Positions 2,379-5,071 of a DNA stretch of 5,071 nt are shown here, piece after piece (the stretch's first letter is position 1; each line of letters begins with the position of its first letter). Made by a program: the position numbers and the translations under genes. Location of the stretch: the IMG/VR virus record IMGVR_UViG_2778261420_000015, one strand, 5' to 3'. The notes below the pieces were generated by a model, which saw only the letters and a program-made list of their open reading frames with translations, was not told the DNA's origin and ran no database searches. This stretch comes from a virus (Duplodnaviria > Heunggongvirae > Uroviricota > Caudoviricetes).

Positions 2379-2908
2379 GACTGGTTTATTGTATGCCAAA
2401 TGATTATTAAAAAGGTTGTGTTAATAACAAAATCCGAAATAATATGCCTGCATATTTTTATCTTGCTTATATTCTGCATATTGTGCATAGCAGGCTCATC
2501 CCTGCAATCAAAACTGTATGATGAGTATTTTTTTTTTCCTTTTTTCCAGTCATCTGATGATGACCTGCTTCTTTTTAATCCGGATCGACATCAGTTTTTT
2601 AAGATAATTCCTGCGAGTTATATGCATAAATACCACAAACTCCGCATTTTATGTGGTTGGGAGTTGCCGGGCGCGCAGTGAGTTTGCTAAGAAAACTCCT
2701 GCATGGTGAATCCCCCTGTGCGGTGGGGTGATACCATTAACCTTTTCTGTCGCCGACAGGTATCACGAACATTTTGTTCACCGGGAGGCACCCGGCACCA
2801 TGCACTTCAATAGATTCTCTCCACATTATGGATATTCTTTCAGAATATCCCACGCAGACTTTGTGTAAATGTTAACAAATGTGCGTTTTATTTGATCTGA
2901 TTCGCTGT

Positions 2909-2938
2909 TTGAGCGTCCAAAACAACGGTATATATAAT
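2909..2938 (+). promoter_or_regulatory. Candidate sigma-70 promoter for the first TolA-like lipoprotein gene
   Basis: TTGAGC (2909-2914), 18-bp spacer, TATAAT (2933-2938). It lies ~30 bp upstream of the 2968 start codon, which has a GAGGA Shine-Dalgarno at 2960-2964. Confidence 0.4.
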
Positions 2939-2967
2939 CCTTTACTATATGACATATGTGAGGAAAA

Positions 2968-3396
2968 ATGGGTTTTCGTAGCGCATCAATTCTTACGTTG
3001 ATTATTAGTGGGATTATTATCGGGTGCACTGATGCTGTATCGACAAATTATCATGACCGTACATCATATTACTCCGATAAAGCAATAGAGACACAGTATG
3101 TGAGTTCATCTGAACGTACTTCTGATGTTAGTGAGGATATCCGTCTGTATGCCCATCAAATCAAGAGCGCCATCGAAAAACAGTTCGGGGATGCGAGTAA
3201 GTATTCAGGAAAAGAGTGTACACTGAGAATGCATATGGCCCCGAATGGCCTTCTACTGGAGGTTAAAAGAGAAAGTGGAGACCTCGATTTATGTCGTGAA
3301 GCGATGAATGCGATAAAGAATGCTGATATACCTGCCCCCCCTTCGCCGGAAGTATATAAAGTATTTCAAAATGGGGTGCTGGATTTTAAACCCTGA
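2968..3396 (+). CDS. Prophage lipoprotein with TolA C-terminal domain III-like fold
   Basis: 142 aa. The N-terminus MGFRSASILTLIISGIIIG-C is a signal peptide with lipobox IIGC; residues after the Cys are T, D. The C-terminal ~85 aa (LYAHQIKSAIEKQFGDASKYSGKECTLRMHMAPNGLLLEVKRESGDLDLCREAMNAIKNADIPAPPSPEVYKVFQNGVLDFKP) aligns by eye almost colinearly with E. coli TolA domain III as I recall it (...YAGQIKSAIESKFYDASSYAGKTCTLRIKLAPDGMLLDIK...ALCQAA...KIPKPPSQAVYEVFKNAPLDFKP), including both cysteines and the terminal LDFKP. Good RBS and own promoter. Confidence 0.8.
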   Translation: MGFRSASILTLIISGIIIGCTDAVSTNYHDRTSYYSDKAIETQYVSSSERTSDVSEDIRLYAHQIKSAIEKQFGDASKYSGKECTLRMHMAPNGLLLEVKRESGDLDLCREAMNAIKNADIPAPPSPEVYKVFQNGVLDFKP

Positions 3397-3546
3397 TATT
3401 TATTGTTTTGTAATAAACGGTTTCGGCTTAGGTTTGTTCTGACACAGCTACGGCACTGAGCTAAATTTAGCGGATAGTCAGCTCTGAGCCAGTGGCGGAC
3501 GTAACAACTACTATTGCTGAGATTTTAATGGATTGAGGAGCAAGAA

Positions 3547-3942
3547 GTGGGATTAAAGAAAATCGTTATGTTGACTTTTTGGGTCGGTTTTGTTGCGGGA
3601 TGCACACCTTTACACCCTTCAGATTGCCACAAAACTACTGCTACAGGTAGTTGCAGTTCAGGACGCTGGGATGATCAGGATGAATGGGGGGCGCAAGCGC
3701 GGGGAATCAGAGCTGCAATTAATGCCAAACTTGATGAGCCGCATAACTGGAAAGGGAAAAAATGCAGGTTGCATATGGAATTCTCTCAGGATGGCACGGC
3801 GTTAAAAATATCTACCAGTAACGGTGATAAAGCCTATTGCGAAGCGATAAAGTCCGCAGCTCATAAAGCCAAATTTCCGGCCTTCAACAATCCGGAAGTC
3901 TACAGAGATTTTCAGAAATCTGGCTTTGACATGCGAGGTTAG
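3547..3942 (+). CDS. Second, divergent TolA domain III-like lipoprotein (paralog of 2968-3396)
   Basis: 131 aa. GTG start at 3547, preceded by GAGGAG (3535-3540). Signal peptide MGLKKIVMLTFWVGFVAG-C with lipobox VAGC. The C-terminal region IRAAINAKLDEPHNWKGKKCRLHMEFSQDGTALKISTSNGDKAYCEAIKSAAHKAKFPAFNNPEVYRDFQKSG keeps the two cysteines and the PEVY..FQ core of the TolA-III-like domain, but the rest is diverged and the terminal LDFKP is replaced. Confidence 0.75.
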   Translation: MGLKKIVMLTFWVGFVAGCTPLHPSDCHKTTATGSCSSGRWDDQDEWGAQARGIRAAINAKLDEPHNWKGKKCRLHMEFSQDGTALKISTSNGDKAYCEAIKSAAHKAKFPAFNNPEVYRDFQKSGFDMRG

Positions 3943-4067
3943 CTCTTCAATTACTATATCTCATTCATAGCAAACTGACAGATTTGATGATGTTCTATAT
4001 ACGAAACCTGTGATGTCAAGTCTGAGCTAATACAAATAAACATAATATCAGAGAAATACATTTTATT

Positions 4068-4092
4068 AGCTCGCTACGGCGAGCTTTTTATA
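4068..4092 (+). terminator. Rho-independent terminator closing the accessory island
   Basis: AGCTCGC-TACG-GCGAGCT (7-bp stem) followed by TTTTTAT, about 100 bp upstream of the holin start. Confidence 0.5.
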
Positions 4093-4193
4093 TTGCATCG
4101 TCTCCAGCATATATATCAATTAAGGCTCTGATTGATGTGTCTGAAAGCCTACACATAATAACTATGCCATCCGTTCCGTGCGGAGGTGAGGCT

Positions 4194-4409
4194 ATGAAAT
4201 CCATGGACAAAATTTCAACAGGCATTGCCTACGGCACCTCCGCAGGCAGTGCTGGCTACTGGTTTTTACAGTTGCTCGATAGAGTAACTCCGTCACAGTG
4301 GGCTGCAATCGGTGTGCTGGGTAGTCTGGTATTTGGCCTGCTGACGTACCTGACAAACCTTTATTTCAAGATTAAAGAAGATAAGCGCAAGGCTGCGAGA
4401 GGTGAATAA
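4194..4409 (+). CDS. S: Class II pinholin, phage 21 S-type, dual-start (antiholin from 4194, holin from 4203)
   Basis: [28 protein letters not shown]...[36 protein letters not shown] matches the S21 pinholin nearly residue for residue from memory. The two starts are M-K-S-M (ATG at 4194 and 4203); the extra Lys is the known antiholin determinant. GGAGG at 4182-4186. TMD1 is Gly/Ala/Ser-rich (SAR-like); TMD2 carries a glycine-zipper. The track's 4137 start is an upstream in-frame extension lacking an RBS. Confidence 0.9.
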
Positions 4410-4906
4410 TGCCTCCATCATTACGAAAAGTCGTTGCTGCTGCTATTGGTGGCGGAGCAATTGCTATAGCATCAGTGTTAATCACTGGCCCAAGTGGTAA
4501 CGATGGTCTGGAAGGTGTCAGCTACATACCATACAAAGATATTGTTGGTGTATGGACTGTATGTCACGGGCATACAGGAAAAGACATCATGCTCGGTAAA
4601 ACGTATACCAAAGCAGAATGCAAAACACTCTTGAATAAAGACCTTGCCACGGTCGCCAGACAAATTAACCCGTACATCAAAGTCGATATACCGGAAACAA
4701 CGCGCGGCGCTCTTTACTCATTCGTTTACAACGTGGGTGCTGGCAATTTCAGAACATCGACGCTTCTTCGCAAAATAAACCAGGGCGATATCAAAGGCGC
4801 ATGTGATCAGCTACGTCGCTGGACATATGCTGGCGGTAAGCAATGGAAAGGTCTCATGACTCGTCGTGAGATTGAGCGTGAAATCTGTTTGTGGGGTCAG
4901 CAATGA
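4409..4906 (+). CDS. R: SAR endolysin (phage 21 R-type lysozyme, T4-lysozyme-like catalytic domain with N-terminal signal-anchor-release segment)
   Basis: 165 aa. The N-terminal [27 protein letters not shown] is a weakly hydrophobic Gly/Ala-rich SAR domain. It is followed by an E...D...T arrangement ([22 protein letters not shown]) matching the catalytic triad layout of R21-type lysozymes. The ATG overlaps the holin stop (TAATG at 4407-4411). Near-identical to my recollection of R21 / DLP12 RrrD. Confidence 0.9.
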
Positions 4907-5010
4907 ACAGAGTAACCGCGATTATCTCCGCTCTGGTTATCTGCATCGTCGTCTGCCTGTCATGGGGTGTTAATCATTACCGTGATAACGCCATTAGACT
5001 GGCCCCCTGA
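4903..5010 (+). pseudogene. Rz: Rz (i-spanin) 5' fragment, truncated by IS2 insertion
   Basis: The start overlaps the endolysin stop (ATGA at 4903-4906). [31 protein letters not shown] is the N-terminal TM anchor of phage-21-type Rz. After codon ~31 the frame runs into IS2 sequence (RLAP-stop at 5008-5010). The embedded Rz1 frame would lie beyond the insertion and is not in the window. Confidence 0.8.
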
Positions 5011-5071
5011 ATCTCCAGACAACCAATATCACTTAAATAAGTGATAGTCTTAATACTAGTTTTTAGACTAG
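4995..5071 (+). mobile_element. IS2 (IS3 family) left terminal region, partial; element continues past the window end
   Basis: TAGACTGGCCCCCTGAATCTCCAGACAACCAATATCACTTAAATAAGTGATAGTCTTAATACTAGTTTTTAGACTAG matches the IS2 left end as I recall it (the bases that follow in IS2 would be TCATTGGAGAACAGATG, the insC start). The junction is ambiguous by 1-2 nt, at about 4995-4997. Confidence 0.75.

Follow-up and report, generated by a model that had tools for sequence, protein, structure and literature searches.

Prophage lipoproteins resembling domain III of TolA as candidate competitors of Tol-dependent import in Escherichia coli

The window analyzed here, meaning the whole 5,071-base stretch of IMG/VR virus record IMGVR_UViG_2778261420_000015, comes from the late region of a lambdoid Escherichia coli prophage. 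Between a gene weakly similar to antiterminator Q (the Q-like gene) and the holin gene, two adjacent open reading frames, ORF1 and ORF2, encode small lipoproteins whose mature parts are predicted to adopt the fold of the C-terminal domain III of the host protein TolA (TolA-III). In the closest complete genome, the setting is that of a Rac-like prophage, with sieB, ydaF, ydaT, and trkG nearby. A preliminary description of the same DNA had claimed two lipoproteins at positions 2968-3942, with lipoboxes IIGC and VAGC and Thr at +2 in both, and had called them a tandem prophage module. The reading frames, lipoboxes, and +2 residues are as it stated (Table 1), and the pair does sit between the Q-like gene and the holin gene, but the idea of a tandem module is too narrow, since each gene also occurs singly.

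Table 1. Features of the 5,071-base window, with the two lipoprotein genes listed first (aa, amino acids; nt, nucleotides).
Feature	Position	Strand	Evidence or remark
ORF1, 142-aa lipoprotein with TolA-III-like domain	2968-3396	+	Pfam, phmmer, AlphaFold2/Foldseek
ORF1 ribosome-binding site GAGGA	2960-2964		5' of ATG start
ORF1 signal peptide and lipobox IIGC (residues 17-20)	2968-3027	+	Cys20 at 3025-3027, Thr at +2
ORF1 tether (residues 21-50), predicted disordered	3028-3117	+	Ser/Thr/Tyr-rich
ORF1 TolA-III fold (residues 51-142)	3118-3393	+	Disulfide pair C84/C109; C-terminal β3 strand LDFKP
ORF2, 131-aa lipoprotein with divergent TolA-III-like domain	3547-3942	+	Pfam, phmmer, AlphaFold2/Foldseek
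ORF2 Shine-Dalgarno sequence GAGGAG	3535-3540	+	6 nt before GTG start
ORF2 signal peptide and lipobox VAGC (residues 16-19)	3547-3603	+	Cys19 at 3601-3603, Thr at +2
ORF2 conserved N-terminal segment PLHPSDCHKTTATGSCSSGRWDDQ	3604-3675	+	Extra Cys pair C27/C36
ORF2 TolA-III fold (residues 44-131)	3676-3939	+	Disulfide pair C73/C98; β3 strand FDMR
STnc100-type RNA element	2671-2857	+	Rfam RF02076, 86.6 bits (gathering score 47), E = 2.9e-18
Sigma-70 promoter-like site TTGAGC, 18 nt, TATAAT	2909-2938	+	10/12 consensus matches, predicted
Intrinsic-terminator-like hairpin (4068-4085) and T run	4068-4092	+	3' of ORF2, 5' of holin gene
DUF1367 gene	496-1095
YbcO/DUF1364 nuclease-like gene	1095-1385
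DUF1133 gene, weakly similar to antiterminator Q (Q-like gene)	1382-1924
AT-rich spacer, about 1 kb, with terminator-like hairpins	Between Q-like gene and ORF1
P21-type holin gene, dual start MKSM	4194-4409	+	Pfam PF04971 (Phage_holin_2_1), 4.5e-35
Lysozyme gene	4409-4906		Gly/Ala-rich N-terminal membrane segment as in signal-anchor-release (SAR) endolysins
Rz (rzpD-like) spanin gene	Starts 4891		Interrupted at 4995 by IS2 end

Both proteins begin with a charged n-region and a hydrophobic core leading into the lipobox; the N terminus reads MGFRSASILTLIISGIIIGC followed by TD in ORF1 and MGLKKIVMLTFWVGFVAGC followed by TP in ORF2. Both lipoboxes fit the pattern [LVI][ASTVI][GAS]C. In the alignment of homologues, the lipobox is IIGC or TAGC followed by Thr or Ser in the ORF1 family, and VAGC or AAGC followed by Ala, Thr, or Ser in the ORF2 family, where it is conserved across genera. 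No intact homologue examined has lost it or has Asp at +2. The start codons annotated for ORF2-type genes vary, giving products of 125 to 161 amino acids. Since a Lys-Lys n-region is conserved, the GTG start at 3547 is favored over the ATG at 3568 chosen by the Prokaryotic Genome Annotation Pipeline (PGAP). Sorting to the outer membrane is predicted because Asp is absent at +2 in both proteins and in their homologues; the preliminary description had reached the same expectation by the +2 rule, and the location itself keeps the status of a prediction.

Profile searches and structure prediction both gave significant matches of the two mature domains to TolA-III, upholding the resemblance that had been proposed. 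Pfam family PF06519 was matched by ORF1 with 82.6 bits (2.4e-23) and by ORF2 with 54.6 bits (1.3e-14), the gathering cut-off being 25; besides TolA, the sole Pfam match for either protein was TonB_2. A phmmer search against the TolA-III chains of the PDB (1s62, 3qdp, 1tol, and 2x9a) returned 5e-28 for ORF1 and 5e-9 for ORF2. In AlphaFold2 models built from a 27-sequence alignment, the predicted local distance difference test score (pLDDT) exceeded 90 across the TolA-III domain of both proteins, and E. coli TolA-III was the best PDB match found by Foldseek for each predicted model: 2x9a_B for ORF1, with a root mean square deviation (rmsd) of 0.6 Å and a template-modeling (TM) score of 0.96, and 3qdp for ORF2 (rmsd, 1.1 Å; TM score, 0.92). 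TolA-III headed both lists, with TonB C-terminal domains as merely distant matches. At the sequence level, residues 55-142 of ORF1 are 59% identical to residues 334-421 of E. coli TolA (52/88, ungapped), so that the earlier wording "almost a copy" was too strong as to overall sequence; the shared Cys pair and the C-terminal LDFKP, which it had also pointed out, are indeed present. ORF2 is 34% identical to TolA-III (27/79), and the two prophage proteins are 29% identical to each other. The Cys pairs C84/C109 and C73/C98 correspond to C363/C388 of TolA and are invariant in all 27 aligned family members.

The remaining domains of TolA are missing. Scores of 107.8 (ORF1) and 53.7 (ORF2) against the full-length TolA model NF007065 lie below its cut-off of 213, with the match confined to positions 293-386 of 387, and the match to TIGR02794 is likewise confined to positions 265-362 of 362. 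As only the C-terminal end of these models is matched, and as the proteins have 142 and 131 residues compared with 421 in TolA, domains I and II must be absent. The C-terminal domain of ORF1 nonetheless passes the TIGR02794 cut-off by itself, covering the last quarter of that model, and this passing score is probably the source of its "tolA" naming. PGAP labels ORF1 a tolA pseudogene, "incomplete, missing N-terminus," in NZ_CP019944 (locus L001, 15136-15396), and elsewhere RefSeq calls the ORF1 type an intact "cell envelope integrity protein TolA" (locus L052, 5933-6361). Both of these current annotations, "tolA" and "tolA pseudogene," are misleading.

The preliminary description had not recognized the pair as a characterized exclusion protein, and Pfam, PHROG, PADLOC, and literature searches likewise gave none. 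Among PHROG families, phrog_5772 (unknown function) was matched significantly, along with weak matches to other families of unknown function and none to a described exclusion family. Foldseek found no catalogued viral protein with the TolA-III fold in BFVD at E values up to 0.001. In a tblastn search of 50,697 phage records, mEp460_ev081 was the sole record encoding the pair, and full-text literature searches turned up no study of these two proteins.

The surfaces by which TolA-III holds its ligands have been mapped, which allows their retention to be assessed. Colicin N, the filamentous-phage protein g3p-N1, and TolB each add a β-strand to its β3 edge (A415-K420); the g3p of phage IF1 also uses TolA-III (PDB 2x9a). 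The substitutions D418P and K420P abolish the contacts with colicin N, g3p-N1, and TolB, and the mutants are fully tol in phenotype (PMC4339652, PMC7066135). The edge on the other side, L375-P380, is the site of colicin A, which makes cation-π contacts to K368, K379, and K396 (PMC3365938). In ORF1, the β3 strand (L138-D139-F140-K141-P142) is identical to L417, D418, F419, K420, and P421 of TolA; its Leu, Asp, Phe, and Lys are invariant in the ORF1 family, and P142 is Leu in one of seven members. On the colicin A side, ORF1 keeps L375, L376, K379, and K396, with Glu in place of D377 and His or Tyr in place of K368. The β3 strand of ORF2 consists of the β-forming residues F127-D128-M129-R130, and Glu, Ser, and His replace all three lysines of the colicin A site. 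By the published criterion for β-strand addition, namely L417, D418, and K420 or other strong β-formers (PMC4339652), the β3 edges of both proteins would permit strand addition, and binding is predicted for both.

Outside the folded domains, the two proteins differ. Residues 1-50 of ORF1 have pLDDT values below 50. In ORF2, the first ~23 residues are disordered in the AlphaFold2 model, and the conserved N-terminal segment is modeled at pLDDT 56-84 with a short β-bridge. This segment is nearly invariant in the ORF2 family (window 3604-3690, residues 20-48), reading PLHPS-C-HKTTATGS-C-SSGRWDDQDEWG, and its motif CHKTTATGSC...GRWDDQDEWG, with the second Cys pair, is absent from TolA and from ORF1. 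It could form another disulfide-closed loop, or it could supply a strand that fills the binding edge from within the same molecule.

At identities of at least 99% and coverages of at least 80%, the pair was found in 776 of 5,426 complete E. coli genomes, and it is also present in phage record mEp460_ev081 and in at least 80 of the IMG/VR contigs examined. Distribution within E. coli is patchy, at 16-25% of genomes. The ORF1 type is limited to Escherichia and Shigella, occurs in 895 of the 5,426 genomes with variants down to 65% identity, and is chromosomal in 951 of its 953 places. A variant 66% identical to ORF1 was found without ORF2 in Qin-like prophages and in prophages of E. coli strains that make Shiga toxin (STEC). 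In one such prophage (STEC1588, locus L052, 5493-6361), it follows tRNA-Ile/tRNA-Arg and precedes a SASA (nanS-p-type) esterase gene; across the loci with the lone variant (L052 and L015-L018), it stands after tRNA-Ile/tRNA-Arg or an AraC-type gene and is followed by the SASA esterase gene, DUF1378, DUF826, and the holin gene. The slot after tRNA-Ile/tRNA-Arg and before a nanS-p-type esterase gene is presumably the stx position of Stx phages. No tRNA genes were found between the Q-like gene and the holin gene in the window.

Both genes are under purifying selection. For ORF1 and its 66%-identical variant, the ratio of nonsynonymous to synonymous substitution rates (dN/dS) is 0.36 overall; the folded domain alone gives 0.26, and the signal peptide plus tether 0.45. 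For mature ORF2 compared with plasmid, Enterobacter, and Serratia copies, it is 0.04-0.09 at dS values of 0.5-1.1. A recent capture of the host tolA is not supported: ORF1 shares 59% identity with E. coli TolA-III and 50-57% with the TolA-III domains of other enterics and with other short lipoproteins, which points to an old split. An obligatory two-gene system was rejected, given that the ORF1 type stands alone in prophages and the ORF2 type alone on plasmids and chromosomes.

The promoter-like site lies 30 nucleotides upstream of ORF1, and the G+C content of the pair region is 0.40-0.45, compared with 0.49-0.52 for the genes around Q. Together with the terminator-like hairpin, these features resemble the layout of a moron, and the pair may be expressed in the lysogen. 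The Q-to-holin slot of lambdoid phages is known to house lysogenic-conversion genes (stx, the lc/nmpC porin, and the nanS-p esterases). Homology to mEp460_ev081 spans window positions 2680-4410, and the Q gene and endolysin of that phage differ. In a scan of IMG/VR, 149 contigs matched ORF1, of which 80 were kept and checked; being 99-100% identical to ORF1, these loci are informative on mosaic boundaries and not on diversity. A left break at ~2760 was seen in 39 of the 80 and a right break at 4380-4410 in about 36. Based on the shared homology and the break positions, ORF1, ORF2, and the holin gene are one traveling mosaic block (~2680-4410). The block shared with mEp460_ev081 has its left edge at the STnc100-type element, just 5' of ORF1; this element may be a small RNA in its own right, a leader of the late transcript, or a regulator of ORF1.

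ORF2 has relatives far beyond prophages. The ORF2 type occurs in ~30 species of Enterobacterales at 63-89% identity, with remoter relatives at 47-53%. In Enterobacter, the gene has a fixed chromosomal neighborhood without mobile-element genes, and in Serratia it adjoins a GmrSD/HEPN pair. On IncK/B/O/Z (I-complex) plasmids, a homologue 87-88% identical to ORF2 lies directly 3' of the nikB/MobA relaxase gene. The same position after nikB/MobA was observed at IncK2/Z plasmid loci (L004 and L006) and, in a decayed transfer region, on pO157 of EDL933 (L003, 6995-7426). Plasmid copies of ORF2 number ~525 places in complete E. coli genomes and occur on 604 PLSDB plasmids. The unit exchanged between elements is the gene and its ribosome-binding site alone (window 3517-3945). 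The Gene Ontology term "bacteriocin transport" is given to the plasmid homologue by PGAP, through inference only.

A third lineage, ~35% identical, has 144 residues, an LLITAC lipobox followed by Ser, and the C terminus ALDFRL; it is annotated "tolA" and found on ~300 plasmids, mostly of Klebsiella. In the one example inspected, a Klebsiella IncFIB/IncFII plasmid (L005, 5217-6246), the gene adjoins a gene for a thioredoxin-fold (DsbA/TraF-like) protein. A profile search of 1.84 billion cluster representatives gave 600 relatives. Among the best 150 of these, 80 are 100-190 residues long, and 57 of the 80 have a lipobox, with Asp at +2 in none of the 57. Lipoproteins consisting of a stand-alone TolA-III domain thus form a large, diverse, and unnamed superfamily.

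In four loci (a Klebsiella plasmid, a Raoultella contig, Klebsiella grimontii, and, beside an integrase gene, Klebsiella michiganensis), a second gene lies ~50 bases 5' of the ORF2-type gene on the same strand. The mature part of its secreted 125-residue product is a TonB C-terminal domain (TonB_C; PF03544, 2.7e-12 and 9e-16). The corresponding coordinates are L047 5574-5951, L048 1094-1471, L049 5517-5942, and L050 5517-5942, and the L050 pair adjoins a phage-type integrase gene. The motor-less tips of both envelope energy transducers thus stand side by side in one putative operon.

Downstream of the pair, the lysis cassette (4194-4906) looks P21-type, and the SAR endolysin and pinholin labels are assigned to it from sequence. 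Window positions 4995-5071 are a terminal inverted-repeat end of IS2 (TAGACTGGCCCCCTGAATCTCC...), inserted in Rz; this copy of the prophage probably has defective lysis. Homology in 29 related IMG/VR loci ends at ~4980-4999, at the IS2 start, indicating that the insertion is absent there; in the closest complete genome, IS2 is instead located between ORF2 and the holin gene. Upstream, two terminator-like hairpins follow the Q-like gene at 2007-2030 and 2352-2371, one of them (AAAAAAACCGCTTAATGCGGTTTTTTT) spotted by eye and the other by scan. A promoter-like site at 2295-2324 lies between these two hairpins and may represent a late promoter, together with the terminator belonging to it. A 111-residue reading frame at 2346-2681 matched no Pfam, NCBIfam, or PHROG family.

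Taken together, we find that the mimicry of TolA-III is real and that an exclusion function is plausible. The two proteins probably act by competing with TolA-III for its ligands. We tentatively go one step further and propose, with somewhat less than even confidence, that they are small, energy-uncoupled TolA-III competitors that block Tol-dependent import, the exclusion of invaders being the presumed benefit. In this proposal, the lipidated proteins would be delivered to the outer membrane, on its inner face, and would display the TolA-III fold on a flexible tether of ~25-30 residues. Lacking domains I and II, each would amount to a TolA tip at the outer membrane that is disconnected from the TolQR proton-motive motor. 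It would be placed where TolB-Pal resides, at the point where g3p and the translocation domains of colicins first appear, and it would compete for β-strand donors, among them the segments by which group A colicins bind TolA, the g3p N1 domain of filamentous phages, and the strand at the N terminus of TolB. A ligand held by such a decoy would not be bound to energized TolA, and the invader would not be pulled across the periplasm. TolA-III binds colicin N and g3p with an affinity of ~1 µM and TolB with ~40 µM (PMC4339652), which suggests that a modest amount of decoy could intercept invaders while sparing most Tol-Pal function. The genes, lipoboxes, fold, conserved sites, selection, and distribution on mobile elements are observed; the outer-membrane location, the ligand binding, and the protective phenotype are the parts of this model that we infer.

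The two proteins may differ in their targets. ORF1 appears to be the better candidate for a decoy of colicins and of Ff- or IF1-type phages because it is host-restricted and keeps LDFKP and most of the colicin A site. ORF2 more likely binds a conserved β3-edge ligand, for instance the TolB N terminus, and would thereby damp TolB-dependent import; it has a pan-Enterobacterales range, is strongly conserved, and has lost the colicin A-site lysines.

Indirect support for a decoy function comes from several sides. ORF1 retains both mapped ligand sites, and some relatives of ORF2 are paired with a gene for a free TonB C-terminal domain. Related lipoproteins are carried by I-complex plasmids; such plasmids make the I-type pili to which the TolA-dependent phage IF1 attaches. 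Strains that export free TolA-III are reportedly tolerant to colicins and Ff phages. Export of free TolA-III also serves as a laboratory means of releasing periplasmic protein from E. coli (PMC6195910). The carriers, namely prophages, I-complex conjugative plasmids, and TonB-paired islands, fit a protective role. A broader reading, possible but doubtful, is that mobile elements of Enterobacterales carry an unrecognized class of import blockers made of free transducer tips, a TolA-III lipoprotein with or without a secreted TonB_C protein. Such tips would trap bacteriocin translocation domains and filamentous-phage entry proteins, and perhaps those of other phages, at the outer membrane's inner face and would shield lysogens and plasmid-bearing hosts broadly and independently of the receptor, with ORF1 as a decoy that imitates the host TolA and ORF2 as a TolB-directed blocker.

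By analogy, these proteins resemble two known kinds: lipoproteins with which mobile elements protect or convert their hosts, and transducer domains that act in a dominant-negative way. E. coli TolA-III itself (1TOL, 1S62, 3QDP/3QDR, 2X9A) shares the fold, with three helices on a β2-β1-β3 sheet, and the same pair of disulfide cysteines. TolA, however, is an inner-membrane protein encoded in the tol-pal operon, whereas the window proteins have neither the transmembrane domain I nor the helical domain II, and hence no link to TolQR and the proton-motive force; they carry a lipid anchor with predicted outer-membrane sorting and are encoded on a mobile element. Laboratory constructs of free TolA-III (Levengood-Freyermuth 1993; Wan and Baneyx 1998; PMC6195910) are likewise periplasmic and uncoupled from the motor, but they are soluble, overexpressed, artificial pieces of tolA itself, whereas the window genes are natural, diverged, and under selection, and their products are predicted to be lipid anchored. 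Llp of T5, Cor of phi80, N15, and mEp167, and TraT of F are also small lipoproteins of mobile elements; they go to the outer membrane and guard the carrier cell by interfering with a competitor's way in. Neither they nor Bor has a sequence or family relation to ORF1 or ORF2; Llp and Cor inactivate the surface receptor FhuA, whereas ORF1 and ORF2 would imitate a periplasmic co-receptor. The conversion genes of the Q-holin slot (stx, lc/nmpC, and nanS-p) share the position, the layout of the pair is moron-like, and the products are unrelated. Free periplasmic C-terminal fragments of TonB are reportedly dominant-negative and inhibit TonB-dependent uptake (Howard et al. 2001). Their natural counterpart would be the secreted TonB_C protein encoded beside ORF2-type genes in Klebsiella and Raoultella, which is absent from the window.

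Several observations weigh against import blocking as the function of the pair. ORF2 is 78-89% identical across genera, compared with 64-88% for TolA-III (E. coli versus Pantoea, Kosakonia, and Enterobacter). Being at least as conserved as TolA-III, it is unlike a decoy that faces fast-evolving toxins, and its conservation suits an endogenous ligand, TolB for instance, no less than an arms race with colicins. Many ORF2-family genes stand in ordinary chromosomal neighborhoods without a mobile-element signature, and the basic role of the family may be physiological. The promoter is a consensus match; if expression instead depends on Q antitermination, the proteins would be made in lytic growth, and protection would then be minor. 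Titration of TolB should also be costly, producing a tol-like leaky envelope. Finally, no PADLOC model matched ORF1 or ORF2 at E values up to 1.

One alternative explanation, which we regard as unlikely, makes the two proteins envelope weakeners that are expressed with the lysis cassette after Q antitermination and titrate TolB, Pal, or CpoB from TolA; a looser outer membrane or vesiculation would then aid the release of progeny, or of the cargo of Stx-type phages, as an accessory to pinholin, SAR endolysin, and spanin. The genes do lie between the Q-like gene and the holin gene, behind terminator-like hairpins, yet they are also bracketed by a promoter-like site and a terminator, as are lysogen-expressed morons. 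ORF1, ORF2, and the holin gene move together as a mosaic block in at least two phage backgrounds, but the ORF1 variant of other prophages is several kilobases from the holin gene, and plasmid and chromosomal ORF2-type genes have no lysis genes nearby. The leakiness of cells with free periplasmic TolA-III (PMC6195910) and the tol phenotype of β3 mutations (PMC4339652) agree with weakening, and strong conservation of ORF2 suits a conserved host target; however, the absence of the fold from the viral proteins catalogued in BFVD argues against a common lysis accessory. A "TolA"-type gene of prophage CP-933O (EDL933_2012), possibly of this family, is upregulated 32-fold after ciprofloxacin (PMC11125564); if it is a member, this would demonstrate that the late operon expresses it. 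No O157:H7 chromosome is among the ORF1 matches listed. An equally improbable explanation is that these are housekeeping or stress lipoproteins of the envelope that bind an endogenous partner for a purpose unrelated to invaders, for example, to tune the mobilization of Pal or to hold some other β-strand ligand, and that mobile elements merely carry them. It would account for the large superfamily of stand-alone TolA-III lipoproteins (57/80 short proteins with a lipobox), for the fixed, non-mobile setting of the Enterobacter copies, and for a dN/dS of ORF2 (0.04-0.09) that indicates conservation comparable to that of TolA-III itself. It sits less well with the repeated, independent recruitment onto prophages, I-complex plasmids, IncF plasmids, and integrase-flanked islands or with the patchy distribution in E. 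coli (16-25% of genomes), and it is hard to square with the pairing with a free TonB_C gene.

Most family members lie in chromosomes and prophages without transfer genes, which makes a role linked to conjugation very unlikely, whether in entry or surface exclusion or as an aid to the mating apparatus, with the prophage copy borrowed from plasmids. ORF1, moreover, has no plasmid relatives (951 of 953 places are chromosomal), and literature searches turned up no link of TolA to I-type conjugation. What speaks for such a role is the location of ORF2-type genes directly 3' of the nikB/MobA relaxase gene on IncK/B/O/Z plasmids and in the transfer remnant of pO157, and the precision of the exchanged unit, which is exactly the gene and its ribosome-binding site. 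TraT and similar known exclusion proteins are, furthermore, outer-membrane lipoproteins. A non-functional tolA fragment or an assembly chimera, which the PGAP label "tolA, incomplete, missing N-terminus" (NZ_CP019944) would suggest and which the preliminary description had itself raised, retains almost no probability and is already refuted. Neither reading frame is broken, and each is equipped with a ribosome-binding site, a signal peptide, and a lipobox of its own; ORF1 has diverged from tolA by 41%; the pair recurs in 776 complete genomes, one phage genome, and at least 80 IMG/VR contigs; and dN/dS stays under 0.4, well short of 1 at high dS.

Whichever of these functions applies, the annotations "tolA" and "tolA pseudogene" should be replaced. 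Should the proteins weaken the envelope at lysis, Stx-type prophages would possess in them a new accessory to phage lysis and vesicle release. Should they instead be competitors, between about one-sixth and one-quarter of sequenced E. coli strains would carry a natural, transferable factor for tolerance to Tol-dependent colicins and filamentous phages, and the same would hold for many I-complex plasmids, Klebsiella IncF plasmids, and pO157. This would bear on colicin and phage therapeutics and on strain competition in the gut, and it could help to explain the persistence of plasmids whose pili are used by filamentous phages. The proteins would offer ready-made probes for force transduction between TolA and TolB, and they would represent a natural case in which a mobile element has copied a hub domain of its host and thereby weakens attacks made through it.

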